Shown here one piece after another: positions 1 to 9,341 of a stretch of 9,380 nucleotides of DNA. This DNA comes from a virus (lineage: Duplodnaviria > Heunggongvirae > Uroviricota > Caudoviricetes), in IMG/VR virus record IMGVR_UViG_2563366903_000014, one strand, 5' to 3'. Under the pieces are notes generated by a model. That model was not told the DNA's origin, searched no databases, and worked only from the letters and a program-made list of their open reading frames with translations. Position 1 is the stretch's first letter, and every line of letters begins with the position of its first letter. The translations under genes and the position numbers were made by a program.

Positions 1-747
1 AATTGTGTCCTTCGTAGTAATTAAACATCAAGAAACCTTAACAACATCCAATAAAGATTATATTGTATTCAGATATGCAGTAGTATTATTTATTTTTATC
101 AATGTACAATTCCTGTAATCTTTCCTGCTATTTCCTTTCAAAATATTTCACAATAAAGTGATAGAACTAATACCCAACATCAGTTAAAAATATTCGCAAA
201 GTACTCCATCACTATCTACAACGCAACTCCATTTCAATATATTCTCTGTTAATCTCATTTTTGTATTCTGTTCAGATTGAATAAAACTCCCCATGATTTC
301 CCATGTTCAAATCAGGAAATACTGATGATCTGATTTCTTTAGATCAAATTTCTGAGATTACTTTATATTTATCTATCAAGCTGTATACCTTTATACCTGT
401 TATACCAGAGCAAAAAACAAATGAGCTACAACATAAAACCTGTTTTGCAATAAAGCTCACAAATTAAGCATATTTCCATATCTGATAGTCGTTACAAACA
501 AGTCTTTTCCAGCCGTTACTTCCAGCATTACCGTATGGCTGACATTTACGAGGCGGATTTGAGTTCACTGTCAGTTACGGGCTGTGTATTTGCGCGCGCC
601 CACTGTCTGGATCGGGGGACACGTTTATCCGGCGTTGCTCCCATGCTTCGGTCACCCTCCACATGTACGCCATCGCTACGCAGTCAAACTAACCAATTAC
701 TGCGGCAGGACTCTCACCTGCAAGACACTGAGCAGCTTTCGAACCGC

Positions 748-1188
748 TCAGAACGGGATATCGTCAGGGAACAGGTCATCGTGATTATTCTGCGGTGGAT
801 GTCCCCGTGATGAGGTCTGTGCCCCTGTGTTTTGTGGCTGGCCTGTGTGTTTTCTCTGACCTCCACCAGGGCGAACAGTACGGGCACTGATTACGCTGTC
901 GGCGATAACCTGCCACCCCTGCCGCGTCTCCCCGTTCTGTCCGGTCCACTGGCTTATCTGCATGTTACCCGCCACGCTGATAAGGTCGCCTTTCTGGTGC
1001 TTCGCCAGATGGTCGGCCTGTTTACCAAAGGCTGTTACGGCAAGCCATAGAGTCGCCTGTCCGTCATCTGCGTTATGGCACGGTACGGATACCGCCATTC
1101 TCGCCAGCGTCATGTTTGTACCCTTGCTGGTCTGTTTTACCTGCGGGTCGTCCACCAGCCGCCCGTAAGCTGCAATCTGTGCTGTCAT
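748..1188 (-). CDS. ssb: Single-stranded DNA-binding protein (short phage/plasmid-type SSB)
   Basis: 146 aa; OB-fold pattern resembling E. coli SSB (IAAYGRLVDDPQV...TLWLAVTAFGKQADHLAKHQKGDLISVAGNMQISQWTGQNGETRQGW); Gly/Gln/Pro-rich linker; C-terminus ends DDIPF, the canonical SSB acidic tip. ATG at 1186-1188 overlaps stop of upstream ORF (ATGA). Confidence 0.85.
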   Translation of the reverse strand: MTAQIAAYGRLVDDPQVKQTSKGTNMTLARMAVSVPCHNADDGQATLWLAVTAFGKQADHLAKHQKGDLISVAGNMQISQWTGQNGETRQGWQVIADSVISARTVRPGGGQRKHTGQPQNTGAQTSSRGHPPQNNHDDLFPDDIPF

Positions 1189-1921: not shown

Positions 1922-3742
1922 TTAATTTTTATCACCCTCATTTTTCACTGGTGCACATGACGGCAGCCAGTCCTCAGACTCATCCATCAGTATCACGTTT
2001 GATCGCACACCTTCTTTCGTTCTCTTTTTCATATACTCCCTGCCATATTCCGCCATTGCGCCTGGCATATCTGCACCGAAGCGCGTCAGTGTTACGGGCT
2101 TACTGAAACCGTGCGCCCTCATATACGAGAGATAGGCGTGATAGAGATAACGGCGCGGACTGAACGGAATAATCTCAGCATTACCGACTAACAGGCCGTC
2201 ACACATTACCGACGACATGAGATAGCCGCAGAAGTCCACCAGCGAATCCCCCTCACGCTTTATTGCAAGGGCTTCTTCTGATTTCTGCTGCTCATGTAAC
2301 AGGCGTCTGGCTTCGTCCTGGTCAGAAAAGCGCGTAAGCAGATGACGAATCACTACAGCAAGCTCACCCTCTATTTTTTCCGGCAGCATCGGATCGCGCT
2401 CGTTTTCCGGTACAACCTCCGAAAAATTGAATATCACACGACGACGCGAGATCCCCCCGCTGCGGTCACTGAATGACATGGCGCTGTTGTTAACCGCCAG
2501 CACTACCGCCGGAATACGCGTTGAGTATGGCGCTTTGTGTTTCGGGTCAATTGCCACCTTGTCACCGCCCGTAATGGCCTTTATTCCTGCTCCATCACCC
2601 GCGTAGCGGGTCATATCCGGCAGAATAATCAGTGAAAAGCCAACCACTAACGCGCGTTCCCTTGCATCCTCCAGTGCCTTCATGCTTGCCGATACCGTGT
2701 TGGCCTTACCCGCCAGCATGGTACAAATCTCCGCCATAACGCTTTTACCGCTTCCACCAGGACCAGTTACCTCAATGAATAACTGCCAGTCGTACCGGTT
2801 CGCCAGCACCATAAATAACGCTGCCAGTACGCGATCCGCCTTGCGGTCATTCTCTGCCACCGAACGGCGCAACCATTTCCAGAAATTCGGCGCATGTGTT
2901 GCCAGCGTTTCACCCTCTGCTGGTGGAGTGAACGGTAACTCACTGGCAATTAACAGCCAGTCATCTTTATCGTGTTCCCGAAAATCACCTGTACGGGTAT
3001 CAAATACCCCGTTGCTGAATCCAATCAGGTGACGGGCGGTATTACCCATTACGGGTAAACTTAACTTCATTGTGTCAACTGCCGATTTAATGGCGTTTTG
3101 TGAATAGCAGATATCTTCGTCAATGAAGATTTGCGCCATTGTGCGCTGTAGCTCTTTGTCCTGCACGGGGGACCATATAACCCCGTTGTAATAGTGAACT
3201 GTGTCAGAGTCAGGGTTTATTGCCAGTTCCCCTCCGTAATGAGCAAGAAGAACCCTGCCACGCTGGCTGGCCCCCATCTGGTTAAGTGCCAGTGACGAAT
3301 CATCACCCTGTCCCCGCGCTTTTTTCTTTACAGGCAGCTCAATAACCAGCCCGTCAGAAATGTTTTTGCGTTCAATATCCAGATAGTTACGCCAGTTCTG
3401 CCGCTCGTTGTGGTGCATTCCTTCAGGGTAGTAATCAGCATCCTGTATACCTGCGGCTGCCAGCTTCTGACCGATGCCTTTGACCATCATCTGATCGAGG
3501 TGTCCGGCCTTGTATATACGCGCTGATTTGCGCCCGTCGGGCACAATTTTCAGATTGCCAATATCCTTAAGTTGTTCATCAGAAAGCACGACTGGCGGAA
3601 CATCATCACCTGCAAGTCGTCCCTCCTGCTCCTGCCACTGTTTCGCGTGCGCCCACGCATCACTGCCAGCGAAAATAATCACTTCCGTATCGGCGTGTTT
3701 TTTCCCTCGCGGCTGTTTTTTTAAGTTCGGTGCGCTTTTCAT
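1922..3742 (-). CDS. DNA primase/helicase, P4 alpha-like (phage/plasmid primase with C-terminal P-loop NTPase domain)
   Basis: 606 aa; Walker A motif GPGGSGKS in the C-terminal half; N-terminal region primase-like; start ATG overlaps stop of upstream small ORF (ATGA at 3739-3742); iterons immediately downstream. Confidence 0.88.
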   Translation of the reverse strand: MKSAPNLKKQPRGKKHADTEVIIFAGSDAWAHAKQWQEQEGRLAGDDVPPVVLSDEQLKDIGNLKIVPDGRKSARIYKAGHLDQMMVKGIGQKLAAAGIQDADYYPEGMHHNERQNWRNYLDIERKNISDGLVIELPVKKKARGQGDDSSLALNQMGASQRGRVLLAHYGGELAINPDSDTVHYYNGVIWSPVQDKELQRTMAQIFIDEDICYSQNAIKSAVDTMKLSLPVMGNTARHLIGFSNGVFDTRTGDFREHDKDDWLLIASELPFTPPAEGETLATHAPNFWKWLRRSVAENDRKADRVLAALFMVLANRYDWQLFIEVTGPGGSGKSVMAEICTMLAGKANTVSASMKALEDARERALVVGFSLIILPDMTRYAGDGAGIKAITGGDKVAIDPKHKAPYSTRIPAVVLAVNNSAMSFSDRSGGISRRRVIFNFSEVVPENERDPMLPEKIEGELAVVIRHLLTRFSDQDEARRLLHEQQKSEEALAIKREGDSLVDFCGYLMSSVMCDGLLVGNAEIIPFSPRRYLYHAYLSYMRAHGFSKPVTLTRFGADMPGAMAEYGREYMKKRTKEGVRSNVILMDESEDWLPSCAPVKNEGDKN

Positions 3743-4032
3743 TTCTTACCTCTGCTGATCGTCTTCTTCATGGCCTTAACATGCGCCTTTGCTTTGTTGT
3801 TGCTGGTTGGGCTACGACGTGGTACGGCCTGCACCAGGGAAAAATCACGCCGGAACTGACAAACAGGCATCACGCAGTCATAGTCATACCCTTCACGGCG
3901 GTAGGTGATGCGCCGTTCCCTCATGCTGATAATCATCACGATGCCGCCGTACTTATCGCGGTAAATATCCCCGCGCATAAATTCGGGTTGAGTTTTGCCA
4001 CTGGCAGTTAAGCCAGTATTTTTTGATTTCAT
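3739..4032 (-). CDS. Hypothetical small basic protein (97 aa) immediately upstream of and coupled to primase
   Basis: AGGAG Shine-Dalgarno about 10 nt upstream of ATG at 4030-4032; stop overlaps primase start. Very basic C-terminus. Function unknown. Confidence 0.5.
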   Translation of the reverse strand: MKSKNTGLTASGKTQPEFMRGDIYRDKYGGIVMIISMRERRITYRREGYDYDCVMPVCQFRRDFSLVQAVPRRSPTSNNKAKAHVKAMKKTISRGKK

Positions 4033-4089: not shown

Positions 4090-4293
4090 TTATTGTTCAG
4101 CGCGTTTTTCTTCCTCCGTCATTAACCATACCGCCACATTTGCGGAAAGTTGTTTAATCAGTCCCGCAATAACAGAAAGGTCATGGTCGTCAATTTCTTC
4201 GTGGTTACGTTCTATCATGCGCTCAATCATGCGGCTGATTACTTCGACCTGCTGCGCTTTCAGTGATGCTTCTGCCAGTGTTATTTCCTGCAT
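4090..4293 (-). CDS. Hypothetical protein (67 aa), predicted helical, acidic
   Basis: ATG at 4291-4293 shares one nucleotide with stop TAA of upstream ORF (TAATG); GGGGTG SD-like sequence upstream. Confidence 0.45.
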   Translation of the reverse strand: MQEITLAEASLKAQQVEVISRMIERMIERNHEEIDDHDLSVIAGLIKQLSANVAVWLMTEEEKRAEQ

Positions 4294-4478
4294 TACTGCA
4301 CCCCATTTATTTCATGAACGGCGTGGATAATTACGCCGGATAAACCGGCTTTAGCTGATTTGTTAATTACTGTGCTGATTGCAGCCTGGACGTTTTCGGC
4401 CTTCACGTTCTGCGTGATGCCAACGGTATAGCCGCGATTATTAACAGCACGGGAAAAGACGCGGAAGGTTTTAAGCAT
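4293..4478 (-). CDS. Hypothetical protein (61 aa)
   Basis: Strong Shine-Dalgarno AGGAGGTGA 5 nt upstream of ATG at 4476-4478; first gene of the leftward operon ending in primase. Confidence 0.55.
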   Translation of the reverse strand: MLKTFRVFSRAVNNRGYTVGITQNVKAENVQAAISTVINKSAKAGLSGVIIHAVHEINGVQ

Positions 4479-5110
4479 GAGTCACCTCCTGACGGATACG
4501 GGCGACAAAAATCAGATGTGCGTGCGGCAGCTGCGCGCGTGCTTCGCGCTCAGTGGCAGCTGTAACGGTGAATATTGCAATGCTGCCTGTCAGGCACTGC
4601 ATAAAGCGCCAGACAAAGTAAGGGCGTGCAGATACAGCCATGTGAAAGGCACCTCTGACTTTGGGATTATACCCACCGCCCAAGAGGCCAATCTTGCTGG
4701 CGGTGGACTGTACGGAATTGGCCTTACTGGTGTTAGAGGAAACCAGCCTTCCCGAAGGAAGTTCCATACAGCCCACCATTGTTGAGGTGTGCGTGTGCGC
4801 CGATACAAAAAAAGACGCTGGCGCGTCGTGTATCGCCTCTAACTCCAGCGGGAGGCCAATCCCGATCCCCGTTTTATAAGGGATAGCCTCAGTATATGCC
4901 GCTTTTTTGCTTAAGTGGTCGGATGTGTTGCGAGAAAAGTTTGTGCGAAAAATACCTGCGTTTTCTTTGAAAGCACATAATAACATCACGTTATTTATGT
5001 TTATGCAGTGTGTCGCAAAGCGACCTGAATCATCACGCAAATTACAACCATAAAAAATACCTGCGCTGTGATATGAGGTACTACAGCGCACCGCTTTACG
5101 GGTACAGACA
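4479..5110. promoter_or_regulatory. Candidate divergent control region between leftward replication operon and rightward small-ORF unit (palindromes, direct repeats, hairpins)
   Basis: 13-bp palindrome TGCCTGTCAGGCA (4584-4596); hairpin CCACCGCC...GGCGGTGG (4673-4706); GGCCAAT motif three times (4686, 4854, and inverted at 4716); hairpin GACGC-tggc-GCGTC (4814-4827) preceded by A7; 13-nt direct repeat AAAAATACCTGCG (4948-4960 and 5053-5065). Specific -35/-10 hexamers could not be assigned with confidence. Confidence 0.4.
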
Positions 5111-5290
5111 ATGACCAACGAAGAATTACAGGCAATCGCATTATCCATACTTGAGCGCCAGCGCGAAAAAGCACGCCAGAAGCGAGAGTATTTGCTTAAT
5201 CCACCTCCTCTCACCAGACCAAAACGATTTGCGCTTGAAGCATTTCTGGATAAATGCCCTCGGCGGTTAATCTCGCCTAAAAACCGATAG
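5111..5290 (+). CDS. Small basic protein, paralog A (59 aa); unknown family
   Basis: ATG 5111, TAG 5288-5290; C-terminal KRFALEAFLDKCPRRLISPKNR is paralogous to the C-terminus of the next ORF; several nucleotide differences between the two copies are synonymous in this frame (gcg/gca, ctg/ctc, cct/cca, tta/cta, aac/aat, cga/cgc). Confidence 0.4.
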   Translation: MTNEELQAIALSILERQREKARQKREYLLNPPPLTRPKRFALEAFLDKCPRRLISPKNR

Positions 5291-5386
5291 CGATCCGCTT
5301 TTGCTTCTCCGACTCCATAAAGCGAATAAAAACCATCAGCGCCGTGGTGTGAGGTACTGCGTCGCTCAGCTGTACAGGAAATAAGT

Positions 5387-5665
5387 ATGGATTTATCACC
5401 AGACGATGAGAAATTTTTACGACAACTACAACACCAACTACTCATGGATGCCATTGTCGAGCAGCAAACAAAGAGCAGCCCGATAGATTCATCGCTGAAT
5501 AAAAAGGCCGCCTCCCGTTTTATTGAAAACAGGATAAGGCGCGGAAAAACATGTGACGACGAGTCAAAGGCATCGCATACAAGAGATAAAAAATTTGCAC
5601 TTGAAGAGTTTCTCAGGAAATACCCACGGCGGCTAAAAGCAACCAAAAATCGCCCGCCAGGCTGA
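5387..5665 (+). CDS. Small basic protein, paralog B (92 aa); unknown family
   Basis: AGGAAA SD 6 nt upstream of ATG 5387; C-terminal KKFALEEFLRKYPRRLKATKNR matches paralog A; conserved upstream leader motif GTG-TGAGGTACT shared with paralog A; intrinsic terminator downstream. Confidence 0.5.
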   Translation: MDLSPDDEKFLRQLQHQLLMDAIVEQQTKSSPIDSSLNKKAASRFIENRIRRGKTCDDESKASHTRDKKFALEEFLRKYPRRLKATKNRPPG

Positions 5666-5731
5666 TAGCATTGTCCACCAGCTACACTCATGGCATAGTT
5701 GGTGATGCGCTTGATTTCCTTTATCTCCACT

Positions 5732-5762
5732 GGCGACCCTTCCATGGTCGCCTTTGTTTTGC
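5732..5762 (+). terminator. Rho-independent terminator for the rightward small-ORF unit
   Basis: Perfect 7-bp GC-rich stem GGCGACC / GGTCGCC (5732-5738 / 5746-5752) with 7-nt loop, followed by TTTGTTTTG on the plus strand; sits between convergent genes. Confidence 0.55.
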
Positions 5763-5765
5763 CTG

Positions 5766-5978
5766 TCATTCCTGCATCATGCGGATATTCGCGCCGTACA
5801 GGGCCGCCAGCGCGATAATTTGATAAAACCTCCCCAAGTATTGCTTAACGTGTTTCATGCGCTCAGCGGCGAAATGGCTCACGATATGGCGCATGTAATC
5901 AGCATGGTTGATGTTCAGTAGTGCGAACTTATCCGCCGTGTCGATGTACCGGACGGCAGGTTTGAGGATGTCAGGCAT
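5766..5978 (-). CDS. Hypothetical protein (about 70 aa), last gene of the alpA-rha operon
   Basis: ATG at 5976-5978 lies 2 nt upstream of the rha stop codon (ATGCCTGA); alternative GTG start at 5984. Confidence 0.45.
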   Translation of the reverse strand: MPDILKPAVRYIDTADKFALLNINHADYMRHIVSHFAAERMKHVKQYLGRFYQIIALAALYGANIRMMQE

Positions 5979-6708
5979 GTTCACGTTCTCCCAGGCGACG
6001 GGCCAGCCAGCGTTGGGCTAATTCGGTGAGACGTTCTTTACGTTCTGGCGTTGGCATATCCATATCCAGTAGCGCACAGTTACGGCTTTCCAGATACGCG
6101 AGCAACGCCAGTTGATCAGCGGTTATATGGTCACGAACTTTTTTTGATGGGATGCCGTTTTTTTTGGCCCATACAGGCGGGTGCATCCCTAATACAAGGC
6201 GCGCAATGAAAGTACATTCGTTGTTATAAGCATGACCGTGTTGAGTGTCTCCAGTACGCTCTATGTATCCCTTCATGGCATCCCCCATAGAGCGCATCTC
6301 AGCTTTGGCCTCACATCTCTCTGCTATCCAGTTAGCCATGCGGTTAAACTGCGCAATGTATGCCTCTTTGAATGCAGCCGCTTTTTTTCCGGTAAATCCC
6401 ATTGTTAAAAACACGAAGCCGTCTTTGGTGACTTCGTAGGCTCTCAATACGCGCCCCTTATGCTCAAATTTAACCCGCCGAAAATTGCGGGTTAAAAATT
6501 CAGCAGAACAACACAGGTTTTCAATCCGGTTAACAACCTTATCGTGATCCTTTCTGAAAAATCGGGCGATAGCCTGTGAAGTGGTTACAGGCTCACCGCC
6601 AGAAGGAAACACTTCCGGCGCAGTGAGTGCATTTTTATTTATTCCGTCAGCAATAATCTCATTGCCGGAAATTACCGAAATAATTGCGGCGAAATCATAA
6701 TTACGCAT
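5971..6708 (-). CDS. rha: Rha-family phage regulatory protein (antirepressor-like)
   Basis: 245 aa; N-terminal region carries the Rha signature (VTTSQAIARFFRKDHDKVVNRIENL ... DGFVFLTMGFTGKKAAAFKEAYIAQFNRM); start overlaps the upstream gene by 8 nt. Confidence 0.82.
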   Translation of the reverse strand: MRNYDFAAIISVISGNEIIADGINKNALTAPEVFPSGGEPVTTSQAIARFFRKDHDKVVNRIENLCCSAEFLTRNFRRVKFEHKGRVLRAYEVTKDGFVFLTMGFTGKKAAAFKEAYIAQFNRMANWIAERCEAKAEMRSMGDAMKGYIERTGDTQHGHAYNNECTFIARLVLGMHPPVWAKKNGIPSKKVRDHITADQLALLAYLESRNCALLDMDMPTPERKERLTELAQRWLARRLGEREHA

Positions 6709-8126: not shown

Positions 8127-9341
8127 TTATGCACATACACTAAACTTGCCGTGCACCACGTTTCCGCCCTGTTCCAGTGAGTCCATATAGTCGGCGTACC
8201 ACTGGAGCATCTCCCGCCGTCCGTCCAGATATTGCGCGTGATTGTATGTGCCACGGATCGAGTTTTTATCGACGTGCGCCAGCTGCGTTTCTATCCACGC
8301 GGAGTTATAACCCTGCTCATGCAAAATTGTACTCATGGTATGCCGGAACCCATGACCAGTAACGCGCCCAGCATAGCCAATACGACGAATAAGCACGTTC
8401 ATCGCCATTTCACTCATCGGTTTACTGTGCTGTATTCGACCAGGGAAAATAAACGGATACTGCCCCGTCATGTGTTTCAGTTGTTCCAGAATAGCAATCG
8501 CCTGTTCTGAAAGCGGCACGCAATGAGGACGGCGCATTTTCATTCGTTCTTTCGGCACTTCCCACAGACGATTATCAAAATCAATCTCCTGCCACTCTGC
8601 CTGCCGCAATTCACCCGGACGGAGTCCTGTAAGAATCAACAATCGCATACCCAGCTTGACGATCTGGCTTCCGGTGTACGTATTAAAAACGCGGAAAAAT
8701 TCCGGTAGCTCATCAACTTTCAGATACGCGTAATGCTCTTTTTTGTGTGGTGCAAATGCGCTTGCCAGATCAGGAGCGGGGTTATATTCAGCGCGTCCGG
8801 TAATTATTGCGTACCGAAACACTTCGCCACATCGCTGGCGAACCTTACGCAATTTTTCAGTTGCGCCACGGTCATTAAGACGGGATAGAACCGCGAGCAA
8901 TTCCATCGGCTTAATCTCTGCGATGGGCCTACCTCCAATGTACGGAAAAACGTCTTTTTCAAACGTCTCTATCATTTCCTCTGCATATGAGGGAGACCAT
9001 CGGTCCAGGCGTTTTTCATACCACTCACGGGCGATCACCTCAAAGGTGTTACCGCATTTGTTCGCCTGTTCTCGCTTTTGGGCCTTTCTGACCTCACTCG
9101 GATTAACTCCACCAGCGATAAGCCTTTTGGCTTCATCCCTTGCCGTCCTGGCATCAGAAAGGGACACCTCAGGATAGACACCCAGCGACAACATTTTGGG
9201 CTTGCCTGCAAACCTGTATCGCAATCGCCAGCCCTTCGAACCGTTCGGCTCAATGAGTAACGAAAGCCCGTTGCCGTCATTGAGTGTATAGGCTTTCTCT
9301 TTTGGCTTCGCGCGGCGGATAGCAAGGTCTGAAAGCAACAT
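8127..9341 (-). CDS. int: Tyrosine recombinase / P4-family integrase
   Basis: N-terminus MLLSDLAIRRAKPKEKAYTLNDGNGLSLLIEPNGSKGWRLRY matches the P4/CP4-57 integrase N-terminal pattern; C-terminal catalytic motifs HGFRHT and RGTYNHAQY. ORF is open to the window edge (alternative ATG at 9378-9380), so the true start may be 9341 or lie further upstream. Confidence 0.88.
   Translation of the reverse strand: MLLSDLAIRRAKPKEKAYTLNDGNGLSLLIEPNGSKGWRLRYRFAGKPKMLSLGVYPEVSLSDARTARDEAKRLIAGGVNPSEVRKAQKREQANKCGNTFEVIAREWYEKRLDRWSPSYAEEMIETFEKDVFPYIGGRPIAEIKPMELLAVLSRLNDRGATEKLRKVRQRCGEVFRYAIITGRAEYNPAPDLASAFAPHKKEHYAYLKVDELPEFFRVFNTYTGSQIVKLGMRLLILTGLRPGELRQAEWQEIDFDNRLWEVPKERMKMRRPHCVPLSEQAIAILEQLKHMTGQYPFIFPGRIQHSKPMSEMAMNVLIRRIGYAGRVTGHGFRHTMSTILHEQGYNSAWIETQLAHVDKNSIRGTYNHAQYLDGRREMLQWYADYMDSLEQGGNVVHGKFSVCA

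Follow-up and report, generated by a model that had tools for sequence, protein, structure and literature searches.

A probable P4-type antisense-RNA immunity switch upstream of the primase operon of an Escherichia coli satellite island

The 9,380-nt stretch of viral DNA analyzed here (IMG/VR record IMGVR_UViG_2563366903_000014; referred to as the window) contains a motif-dense segment, positions 4479 to 5110, upstream of its replication genes. An original prediction made from the letters alone described this segment as non-coding and as a plausible RNA-based immunity locus. What does it encode, and how might it act on the genes that follow? The ORF map and family matches place it ahead of a primase operon and in the orientation of that operon, within a satellite that also carries int and an alpA/vis homolog; the order in this E. 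coli satellite island, all on the minus strand, is int, alpA, Rha-type genes, RNA switch, primase, and SSB. We consider it likely, with a probability of about 0.8, that positions 4479 to 5110 are the RNA immunity switch of a P4-like or Gram-negative PICI-type satellite island and that it works by the mechanism proposed below. This reading would locate the on/off switch for replication of the island. It is an antisense-RNA immunity switch of a kind already known from phages P4 and P1; the type of system is not new, and the module leaves the known mechanism unaltered.

RNA elements and the first gene of the module

That a P4-like RNA immunity locus precedes the replication operon had been the original prediction, with the Rfam C4 and IsrK families named as a check. 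Both models matched the minus strand above their gathering scores (Table 1), isrK by a marginal 2 bits. P4 itself gave 60.8 bits for isrK and then 74.9 bits for C4 at the equivalent position upstream of its epsilon/alpha operon, and the isrK-then-C4 pair occurs in unchanged order in P4, P1, a P1-like phage, and Stx phage PA2. Read 5' to 3' on the minus strand, the module consists of a −10 hexamer, the IsrK/SeqA-like leader, the C4/CI RNA, the a2 and b2 sites, and an Icd/Kil-like gene, a layout common to P4, P1, Stx phages, and 51 modules from viral contigs. Every motif listed in the prediction is present at its given place, and three of the five are working parts of this module.

Table 1. Features in and around positions 4479 to 5110 of the window
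Feature	Coordinates	Strand	Evidence or remark
Putative −10 hexamer TATACT	4897..4892	−	putative constitutive promoter, presumed equivalent of P4 PLE / PisrK
IsrK / P4 SeqA-like leader RNA	4884..4808	−	Rfam RF01394, 52.1 bits vs GA 50, full length
Leader hairpin 1	4884..4865	−	97.6% paired, 6/6 pairs compensatory
Leader hairpin 2, displays a1	4864..4849	−	87.7% paired
a1 target AUUGGCCU	4860..4853	−	complementary to C4 a'; a'-a1 8/8 in window
b1 target GUUAGAGG, single-stranded	4843..4836	−	complementary to C4 b'; b'-b1 8/8 in window
Compound terminator structure	4835..4801	−	terminator scan; fold z = −2.7
C4 / P4 CI-type antisense RNA	4783..4696	−	Rfam RF01695, 73.8 bits vs GA 45, model positions 1-87/87
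b' = CCUCUAAC	4739..4732	−	loop of C4 hairpin 2
a' = AGGCCAAU	4724..4717	−	single-stranded joint of C4
a2-displaying hairpin	4706..4673	−	fold z = −3.6; helix 84.5% paired
a2 target AUUGGCCU	4692..4685	−	loop of CCACCGCC hairpin; a'-a2 8/8 in window
b2 target GUCAGAGG	4659..4652	−	overlaps Shine-Dalgarno of Icd-like gene
Icd / P4 Kil-like gene, 56 aa	4641..4471	−	NCBIfam NF033153, 53.4 bits vs cut-off 25
61-aa ORF, first of downstream genes	4478..4293	−	phrog_3672 match, 1e-23
432-codon open frame, candidate P4 eta equivalent	5769..4471	−	in frame with Icd-like gene
13-bp palindrome TGCCTGTCAGGCA	4584..4596		inside Icd-like coding sequence
13-mer AAAAATACCTGCG, copy 1	4948..4960	+	64-76 nt 5' of presumed leader start
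13-mer AAAAATACCTGCG, copy 2	5053..5065	+	start of 53-nt unit 5' of small plus-strand ORF 5111-5290

A TATAgT-like hexamer stands 6 to 7 nt 5' of IsrK hairpin 1 in the window, P4, P1, Stx phage PA2, and several IMG/VR modules, which makes it the putative −10 element of the leader promoter. The accompanying −35 sequence is poor (ACCACT), and a generic sigma-70 scan of both strands found no full promoter. Within the leader, the c4-a1b1 motif (RF03163) reached 21.8 bits, under its gathering score of 46.7, and overlaps the isrK match; P4 also falls below this score (44.1 bits), while P1 passes (51 bits). The a1 hairpin is present despite the low c4-a1b1 score, and the same bases are covered by isrK.

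The leader ends in what had been noted as a compound structure (CGATAC at 4801, A7 at 4807-4813, GACGC/GCGTC at 4814-4827, and GTATCG at 4830), which holds the predicted IsrK terminator. On the minus strand, the terminator scan identified the hairpin GACGC-GCCA-GCGUC (4827..4814, 5 pairs) followed by U7 (4813..4807), both clamped by an outer stem of CGAUAC (4835..4830) and GUAUCG (4806..4801). The complementarity of this outer stem is kept with other letters elsewhere (GCACA/UGUGC, GCAUAUA/UAUAUGC, GCGACA/UGUCGC in P4, and CGGACA/UGUCCG in P1); in the formal pair count it is weaker, at 74% paired in a leader region that aligns poorly. The spacer between leader and C4 measures 24 nt in the window versus 107 nt in P4.

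The C4 stretch folds at −40 kcal/mol (MFE; z = −5.4) into a long outer stem around two hairpins, with 96.5% of cells paired. Compensatory changes, another check proposed at the outset, were found at 14 of its 27 pairs, which differ on both sides (0 of 500 shuffles scored as high), and they also support the IsrK hairpins and the a2 hairpin. In the latter, 8 of 11 pairs changed on both sides among 14 diverse elements, 5 columns being held in common with the C4 stem. This is the strong hairpin of the original prediction, with CCACCGCC at 4673 and GGCGGTGG at 4699. Both folds need CCACCGCC, as the 5' arm in the a2 hairpin and as the 3' arm in the outer stem of C4, so that only one of them can form at a time. 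Judged by sequence alone, the 3' end of C4 is CCACCGCCA, with an acceptor-like stem.

The view that the region holds no convincing gene did not survive. The Icd-like gene, which starts at an ATG at 4641 and is annotated by PGAP in relatives, is the first translated gene 3' of the RNAs, and a 432-codon eta-like frame also crosses the region. NF033153 likewise recognizes the 65-aa ORF of P4, the first after CI (76 bits), and P1 Icd (52.6 bits), and a scan of genome contigs with an Icd alignment returned 2 loci only. The 3' end of the Icd-like gene overlaps the start of the 61-aa ORF by 8 nt (ATGCTTAA), an arrangement by which the two are predicted to be translationally coupled. A 67-aa ORF, DUF4222, and a D5-type primase (1922-3742) follow, the last two by Pfam match. 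The plus-strand ORFs 4477-4785 and 4661-4879 were rejected as genes: they have no family matches and run antisense to the Icd-like gene and C4.

Pairing of C4 with its targets and the proposed control

The GGCCAAT motif that had been counted three times (4686 and 4854 on the plus strand, 4717 on the minus strand) corresponds to a2, a1, and a', respectively. The 8-mer AGGCCAAT occurs 3 times versus 0.34 expected, and 0 of 200 shuffles contained three. We compared these sites across the 51 unique viral-contig modules by counting pairs at fixed columns. The a' and b' sequences fall into 6 and 5 types, respectively; they differ between elements and are complementary, at fixed positions, to the a1/a2 and b1/b2 sites of their own element. 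Complementarity was 7 to 8 of 8 within an element versus about 5 of 8 across elements: for a'-a1, 7 to 8 of 8 in cis and 4.8 in trans, and for b'-b1, 8 of 8 in cis in all 51 modules and 4.9 in trans. Summed RNAduplex energies for same versus different elements were dropped as noisy, because the slices took in stem bases. In the window, the b'-b2 pairing is 7 of 8 (one C.A mismatch), where 8 of 8 is the rule elsewhere; b2 is identical in near-identical islands, and in all other types it lies on the Shine-Dalgarno sequence of an ORF beginning AUGGCU. These comparisons establish what the parts are, that they are conserved, and that C4 co-varies with its targets.

We propose the following mechanism. 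Leftward transcription would begin at the promoter with its −10 element at 4897..4892, an activity that we infer, and the first 77 nt would form the leader with a1 and b1, the intrinsic terminator stopping part of the transcripts as a short RNA. C4 would lie within the read-through transcripts. In P1/P7 and P4, C4 is released from a longer transcript by RNase P, with trimming of its 3' end, and by analogy with P1 and P4 the RNA of the window would be excised and accumulate. Its exposed a' and b' would then pair with a2 and b2 just 3' of it, and the pairing with b2 would cover the ribosome-binding site of the Icd/Kil-like gene and block its translation. This block would also silence the overlapping 61-aa ORF, and Rho-dependent polarity would presumably then silence the DUF4222 and primase genes, so that the island would not replicate. 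C4 pairing with a1/b1 on the leader could provide a second control point, at which C4 would regulate itself by termination, be titrated by the short leader, or both. Transcripts entering from the upstream genes would be read by ribosomes across the entire module in the eta-like frame and so escape control, as described for P4.

The leader sites allow two other weightings of these parts. C4 might act chiefly at the leader, its pairing with a1/b1 promoting IsrK termination (attenuation and self-limitation of C4), with the a2/b2 block secondary. The a1 and b1 sites are conserved, and their co-variation with C4 is as tight as that of a2 and b2; b1 ends 8 nt 5' of the terminator hairpin, and in some relatives (L011 and L045) it shares bases with the 5' arm of a hairpin competing with the terminator; for P4, PMC10111431 describes early termination as controlled by CI binding to seqA. 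We nevertheless regard this weighting as rather unlikely: no competing antiterminator helix is evident in the leader of the window itself, b2 lies on the Shine-Dalgarno sequence of the first ORF in every element, which is sensible only for translational control, and the curated repression targets of P1 are a2 and b2.

Alternatively, the terminated leader could be an anti-immunity activator, in which a1/b1 bind C4, either free or within the read-through mRNA, and thereby turn downstream translation on. Gifsy-1 IsrK supplied in trans raised anrP translation 139-fold and needed an intact locus (PMC4825925, Table 1B), and the window leader has the three-hairpin layout of Gifsy-1 IsrK with a U-rich 3' end. 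This role is similarly doubtful here. In the P4-like prophages of S. Typhi, the IsrK-like element is required, which speaks for maintenance and not induction (PMC3632133), and in the window leader and C4 share one promoter, so that their ratio would be set by read-through alone. Translational repression at a2/b2 remains the reading that we prefer.

The long open frame and the upstream block

All of positions 4479 to 5110 lie inside the 432-codon frame, whose start overlaps (ATGA) the stop of a 72-aa ORF at 5984..5766. As the candidate equivalent of P4 eta, this frame would be translated as a pass-through over the promoter, leader, C4, and targets. Across modules, the open codons in frame 5' of the Icd-like start number 90 at the median versus 5 and 62 in the other frames, with at least 300 codons open in 9 of 57 modules, and eta-like frames in relatives span 351 to 800 codons.

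The same frame invites the opposite interpretation, that the stretch is essentially protein-coding (an "Ash"/Eta-Icd protein of 432 aa) and that the RNA-model matches are a by-product of conserved coding sequence. Besides sharing the reading frame of the Icd-like gene, being coupled by ATGA to the preceding ORF, and showing enriched openness across modules, the frame matches Pfam Phage_ASH at 33.9 bits over residues 292 to 378 of its translation; PGAP names the long frame "ash family" or as extended Icd-like proteins, and Gifsy-1 orf45, which overlaps STnc1160, is reported to be translated (PMC4825925). We judge this interpretation very improbable. Changes in the helices of C4 and IsrK come in compensatory pairs, an RNA signature, and a' and b' co-vary with distant target sites. 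The translation is rich in Ser, Cys, and Arg, and over residues 1 to 291 the Pfam search found no domain. A UAA in the b' loop closes the frame in P1, and P4 eta is described in PMC10111431 as working via the act of translation and not through a folded product. The Pfam Phage_ASH and PHROG "transcriptional repressor" labels here derive from translated RNA sequence. Over the two RNA genes, RefSeq carries an "ash family" pseudogene or nothing, an annotation that the present assignment corrects.

The T-run of the terminator also argues against a 432-aa protein. It comprises T7, T8, or T9 among the islands of relatives, and T8 or T9, found in 75 of 90 islands, breaks the frame with the Icd-like gene. 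T7 would yield an Eta-Icd fusion, T8 a stop inside C4, and T9 a stop 51 nt into the Icd-like gene, the T9 relative still reading across the module. Because the run differs between islands, the level of read-through and the framing of eta would vary with it. That the 7, 8, or 9 T in otherwise near-identical islands act as a heritable tuning knob for C4 read-through, the leader-to-repressor ratio, and the frame of ribosomes from upstream is a long shot; if true, the run and the eta-like frame, which is unusually long and selectively kept open, would jointly render both the inducibility of the satellite and the Icd-like toxicity phase-variable.

Upstream of the leader, the third of the region at 4885-5110 may instead be the promoter and 5' region of the small plus-strand ORFs (5111-5290 and 5387-5665), unrelated to the RNA switch. 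This block accompanies the small plus-strand ORF in islands without IsrK/C4 on the left, with homology from about 4893; PGAP annotates that ORF in relatives; and the 53-nt unit, repeated at 5326 with 74% identity and a 276-nt spacing, precedes both paralogous ORFs. Conversely, the left edge of the block holds the −10 hexamer correctly placed for the leader, and the generic scan gave the plus-strand ORFs no sigma-70-like promoter. Synonymous and non-synonymous counts do not separate these ORFs from the long minus-strand frame and are uninformative, because the plus and minus frames share their wobble position. We hold such a separate role of the block to be possible, if on the weaker side of even odds.

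Two further motifs of the original prediction lie outside the RNA system. The 13-nt direct repeat exists, with AAAAATACCTGCG at 4948 and 5053, but only in part as a feature: in relatives about 76% identical, 12 of 13 positions are kept in the 4948 copy, and the 5053 copy is not conserved. The 4948 copy belongs to a family of related A5-rich repeats tied to the paralogous small plus-strand ORF units. The 13-bp palindrome TGCCTGTCAGGCA is likewise present at 4584, but as a feature it fails, being broken (GGC to GAC) in islands 98.6% identical. By simple arithmetic about 2 palindromes of the 6+1+6 type are expected per 9.4 kb, and this one is most likely due to chance; unconserved and intragenic, it was ruled out as a protein-binding site.

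Relation to known systems and distribution

The module is about equally close in arrangement to P4 and to P1 immI (c4-icd). P4 shares with the window an Icd-like ORF as the first one beyond the RNA, targets that lie on either side of the RNA and are complementary to it, a long frame of the eta type across the module (in P4 the 214-aa ORF at 8812..8168), and a primase operon under control of the module, presumably so in the window, within a satellite that has int and an alpA/vis homolog. P4 differs in its a'/b' specificity (UUCUCAC and CCUGUGAA). In the window, the eta-like frame runs for 432 codons from a start that follows Rha-type genes instead of coming straight after the alpA homolog; the primase, of 606 aa, belongs to the D5/DUF5906 type, whereas P4 alpha has 777 aa; and, unlike P4, the window has no sid, delta, or psu genes.

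The window has the order a1, b1, c4, a2, b2, icd and the spacing of the curated P1 immI record; in both, b2 falls on the ribosome-binding site of icd, and the icd stop overlaps the start of the next gene. Between the window and a P1-like phage, the C4 scaffold shows 85% identity. The cargo, in contrast, consists of replication genes (the 61-aa ORF, the 67-aa ORF, DUF4222, and the D5-type primase) and not the P1 Ant antirepressor, the isrK model gives the P1 leader no more than 35 bits, and the frame through c4 is closed in P1 and open in the window.

The isrK-STnc1160/orf45-anrP region of Gifsy-1 resembles the window in having a short terminated IsrK with a read-through mRNA, a stable processed RNA 3' of it, and a small first ORF translationally coupled to the next gene (PMC4825925). 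The spacing of the orf45 AUG codons (nt 107 and 119) would fit AUGGUGGGCUGUAUGG in the 5' arm of C4. There, however, the module controls an antirepressor and through it AntQ, and IsrK is reported to have an activating role (PMC4825925); in the window, a separate Icd-like ORF comes next and the cargo is a satellite replication operon. IsrK and C4 have been described as structural homologs of P4 seqA and CI RNA in P4-like prophages (PMC3632133). According to the available text of PMC10111431, C4 and isrK profiles match several Gram-negative PICIs, whose "Bro zone" resembles the window in carrying int, alpA, Rha/Bro-type genes with embedded C4 and isrK, primase, DUF5906, and SSB. The target complementarity, allele types, and alternative helices were worked out here and are not described for PICI immunity RNAs in that text.

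Of 5,426 complete E. coli genomes, at least 76 and perhaps as many as about 89 carry the island, and many of these carriers are O157:H7, O111, and O103 Shiga-toxin strains. No phage with the exact a'/b' specificity of the window was found in the viral contigs, and in the E. coli genomes this specificity occurs once per genome and on chromosomes only, and so gives no evidence for a helper with the same alleles. Stx2a phages and P1-like phage-plasmids that share these hosts carry the same scaffold with other a'/b' alleles. With the scaffold shared and the alleles differing, the allele table allows possible cross-repression and cross-activation among these elements to be predicted from sequence.

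IsrK- and C4-type RNA module on the minus strand

The original prediction took the motif-dense stretch at window 4479-5110 for a candidate immunity or regulatory RNA locus, plausibly of P4-like arrangement. We scanned the whole window against Rfam with curated cut-offs applied, and the two models that the prediction had named for such a search, C4 and IsrK, both passed inside this stretch (see the table). The minus-strand parts are collinear with the curated order of P1 immI (promoters, a1, b1, c4, a2, b2, icd, ant). From this order, several of the symmetric elements could be placed in the module: GGCCAAT stands three times, as a1, a' and a2; the CCACCGCC hairpin exposes a2; and the compound structure corresponds to the leader terminator. 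All the listed motifs were found where they had been reported; they carry unequal weight. We counted three copies of the 8-mer AGGCCAAT in the window, where 0.34 would be expected, and no shuffle among 200 reached this number. In a terminator scan of 4200-5500, the minus-strand hairpin with its T-run was the sole terminator-like site. The 13-bp palindrome is not supported as a feature, as it lies within coding sequence and is disrupted in 98.6%-identical islands; the 13-nt repeat pair is present in both copies, but more distant relatives retain just one.

Features of the RNA module and of other regions (window coordinates)
Feature	Position	Strand	Detail
Module part 1, -10-like hexamer	4897..4892	-	TATACT
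Module part 2, leader hairpin 1		-	
Module part 3, leader hairpin 2		-	loop = AUUGGCCU (a1)
Module part 4, b1		-	GUUAGAGG
Module part 5, terminator hairpin + U7		-	CGAUAC/GUAUCG stem as clamp
Module part 6, C4	4783..4696	-	73.8 bits vs cut-off 45 (Rfam); b' = CCUCUAAC in loop, a' = AGGCCAAU in single-stranded joint
Module part 7, hairpin		-	exposes AUUGGCCU (a2)
Module part 8, b2		-	GUCAGAGG, on Shine-Dalgarno
Module part 9, Icd-like ATG		-	gene's stop overlaps 61-aa ORF start by 8 nt
c4-a1b1	4897..4845	-	sub-threshold Rfam match
isrK	4884..4808	-	52.1 bits vs cut-off 50 (Rfam)
Terminator T-run	4807-4813		T7 in the window
AUGs in C4 5' arm	4776-4779, 4764-4767	-	both in AUGGUGGGCUGUAUGG, 12 nt apart
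Icd-like gene	4641..4471	-	NCBIfam NF033153, 53.4 bits vs cut-off 25
432-codon open frame	5769..4471	-	in frame with Icd-like gene
Phage_ASH and related labels	4636-4896	-	
Degenerate third plus-strand unit	~4930-4990	+	
Paralogous candidate small ORFs	5111-5290, 5387-5665	+	59 and 92 aa, within 5050-5665
group-II-D1D4-4 match	570-723	-	context 519-760; full-length, 67.1 bits vs cut-off 49
SSB gene	748-1188		
sR17 match	3725-3775	-	27 bits vs cut-off 36

We propose, as the likeliest mechanism, that read-through transcripts would give rise to C4 RNA, which would pair with a2/b2 and block translation of the Icd-like gene, and that this block would silence the downstream replication genes via coupling and Rho polarity. 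The leader a1/b1 sites would add autoregulation, a decoy role or both, and upstream transcription translated through the long eta-like frame would escape control. The parts of the module and their pairing logic are evident from the sequence and from comparison with relatives; for RNA processing, polarity, use of the promoter and translation of eta we draw inferences from work on P1, P4 and Gifsy-1. The two AUGs of the C4 5' arm, which in the window share the frame of the Icd-like gene and in nearly all modules lie a fixed 138 nt from it, are spaced like the first and second AUGs of Gifsy-1 orf45 (nt 107 and 119-121).

Target pairing and RNA folds across relatives

An isrK-then-C4 pair is also found in P4 (isrK 8692..8615, C4 8507..8420, upstream of epsilon/alpha), P1, one P1-like phage and Stx phage PA2. 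When viral contigs were scanned for 16 nt of the C4 5' arm, 80 loci were returned, and 51 unique modules had the full layout. Their a' sequences are of six types and their b' sequences of five, variously combined. In each of the 51, a' is matched by both a1 and a2, and b' by both b1 and b2, always at fixed positions. Complementarity (of 8 positions) within the same element versus between different elements was 7.0 versus 4.8 for a'-a1, 7.0 versus 4.85 for a'-a2, 8.0 versus 4.9 for b'-b1 and 7.9 versus 5.4 for b'-b2. Whatever the type, b2 sits on the Shine-Dalgarno sequence of an ORF that begins AUGGCU; the b2 of the window has one mismatch, common to its close relatives. The window's own a'/b' pair was not found in the viral contigs; 76 E. 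coli chromosomes have it, at one copy per genome.

Stx2a phages and P1-like phage-plasmids (L009-L094 of IMG/VR, L004 and PA2, L005) have C4 scaffolds 77-85% identical, with a'/b' alleles reassorted; the window a' (AGGCCAA) is that of the commonest P1-like type, and b' differs. In PA2 (L005:2336-2983, minus strand), the ORF after b2 encodes a Rha-type protein that keeps an Icd-like "MATIP" start; the first regulated gene is therefore swappable, with RNA targets and start context retained.

For the folds we aligned 14 sequences that span P4, P1 and a diverse set of contigs. In C4, the fold was 96.5% paired, with both sides changed in 14 pairs; IsrK hairpin 1 was 97.6% paired (6/6 pairs compensatory) and the a2 hairpin 84.5% (8/11). 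The a2 hairpin and the C4 outer stem share five alignment columns, and these folds are therefore mutually exclusive. The terminator outer stem keeps complementarity through five different sequences across lineages; its formal pairing count, made on a leader that is poorly aligned, is weaker. The leaders of two divergent modules (L011:12834-13099 and L045:9299-9564) have two mutually exclusive hairpins, GAGCGC..GCGCUC, which is overlapped by b1, and GCGCUC..AGCGC plus a U-run. The arrangement resembles an antiterminator/terminator pair, which binding of C4 could switch.

Icd-like gene and long reading frame

The stretch had been described as lacking a convincing gene, which was wrong: it includes an Icd-like gene, so annotated by PGAP in near-identical E. 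coli O157 islands, and is itself contained in a 432-codon frame. The Icd-like model gives 52.6 bits for P1 Icd and 76 bits for the first P4 ORF after CI (65 aa, 8365..8168). At its start the 432-codon frame overlaps a 72-aa ORF by ATGA, and that ORF overlaps a Rha-type gene; the P4 counterpart of the frame, of 214 codons, overlaps the end of orf88. Across modules, the median number of open codons upstream of the Icd-like start is 90 in frame versus 5 and 62 in the other frames, and in 9 of 57 modules the in-frame open stretch is 300 codons or longer. These nine long ORFs (351-800 aa) are Ser/Cys/Arg-rich and have short motifs in common, with no domain found besides Phage_ASH and Icd.

Among 89 E. 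coli genomes with the island, the T-run is T7 in 15, T8 in 5 and T9 in 70, and its length changes the long-ORF reading frame and would alter terminator strength. With T9, the frame no longer joins that of the Icd-like gene; the long ORF nevertheless runs through the leader, C4 and a2/b2 and past the start of the Icd-like gene, ending 51 nt into it. We therefore regard the 432-codon frame as a probable translated pass-through, like P4 eta, rather than a gene for a folded protein. The Pfam Phage_ASH match, the "ash family protein" pseudogenes of PGAP and the PHROG label "transcriptional repressor" each map to the Icd-like gene or to translated IsrK/C4 sequence, and appear to descend from an old P4 cI protein annotation.

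In its account of P4, a 2023 survey summarizing P4 work places CI and seqA inside eta, describes kil as a truncated eta, and states that eta is translated only from an upstream late promoter, coupled to an alpA homolog, and that this translation prevents termination (PMC10111431). Because structural homologs of IsrK and C4, namely seqA and CI, are in use in P4-like prophages (PMC3632133) and both Rfam profiles match Gram-negative PICIs in the survey's account (PMC10111431), the kind of system is already known; the window module itself is un-annotated. P4 SeqA and IsrK have also been described as structural homologs, with STnc1160 downstream of IsrK (PMC4825925). What this analysis adds is modest: the a'/b' allele table with its reassortments, a conserved alternative helix that shares the 3' arm of C4, the polymorphic T-run and the very long eta-like frames.

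Upstream block and other features

In the upstream third of the stretch (4885-5110), homology with other islands begins at ~4893 and extends into the plus-strand small ORF; as those islands are without IsrK/C4 on the left, the RNA module and the upstream block are separate mosaic pieces. Their junction falls exactly at the leader's -10 hexamer, which suggests a recombination joint between promoter block and RNA module. A TATAgT-like hexamer precedes hairpin 1 by 6-7 nt in every lineage examined, in support of the assigned promoter. In the window the -35 is poor, and a generic promoter scan found none.

Both paralogous candidate plus-strand ORFs end ..FALExFLxKxPRRL..KNR, and each is preceded by a 53-nt unit, at a spacing of 276 nt (3 x 92). 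These units are antisense to the long minus frame. The relative L001 has one unit fewer, and arrays in relatives appear to be longer.

Elsewhere in the window, a weak match to archaeal snoRNA sR17 at the primase/DUF4222 junction is below cut-off and almost certainly due to chance. The group-II-D1D4-4 match lies directly downstream of the SSB gene; no reverse-transcriptase ORF follows it, the remaining 570 nt being AT-rich and stop-filled. Among 5,426 E. coli genomes, 1,147 have the ~240-nt element of this match beside ssb genes, at 80-92% identity; the element may be an ssb-associated structured RNA rather than an intron.
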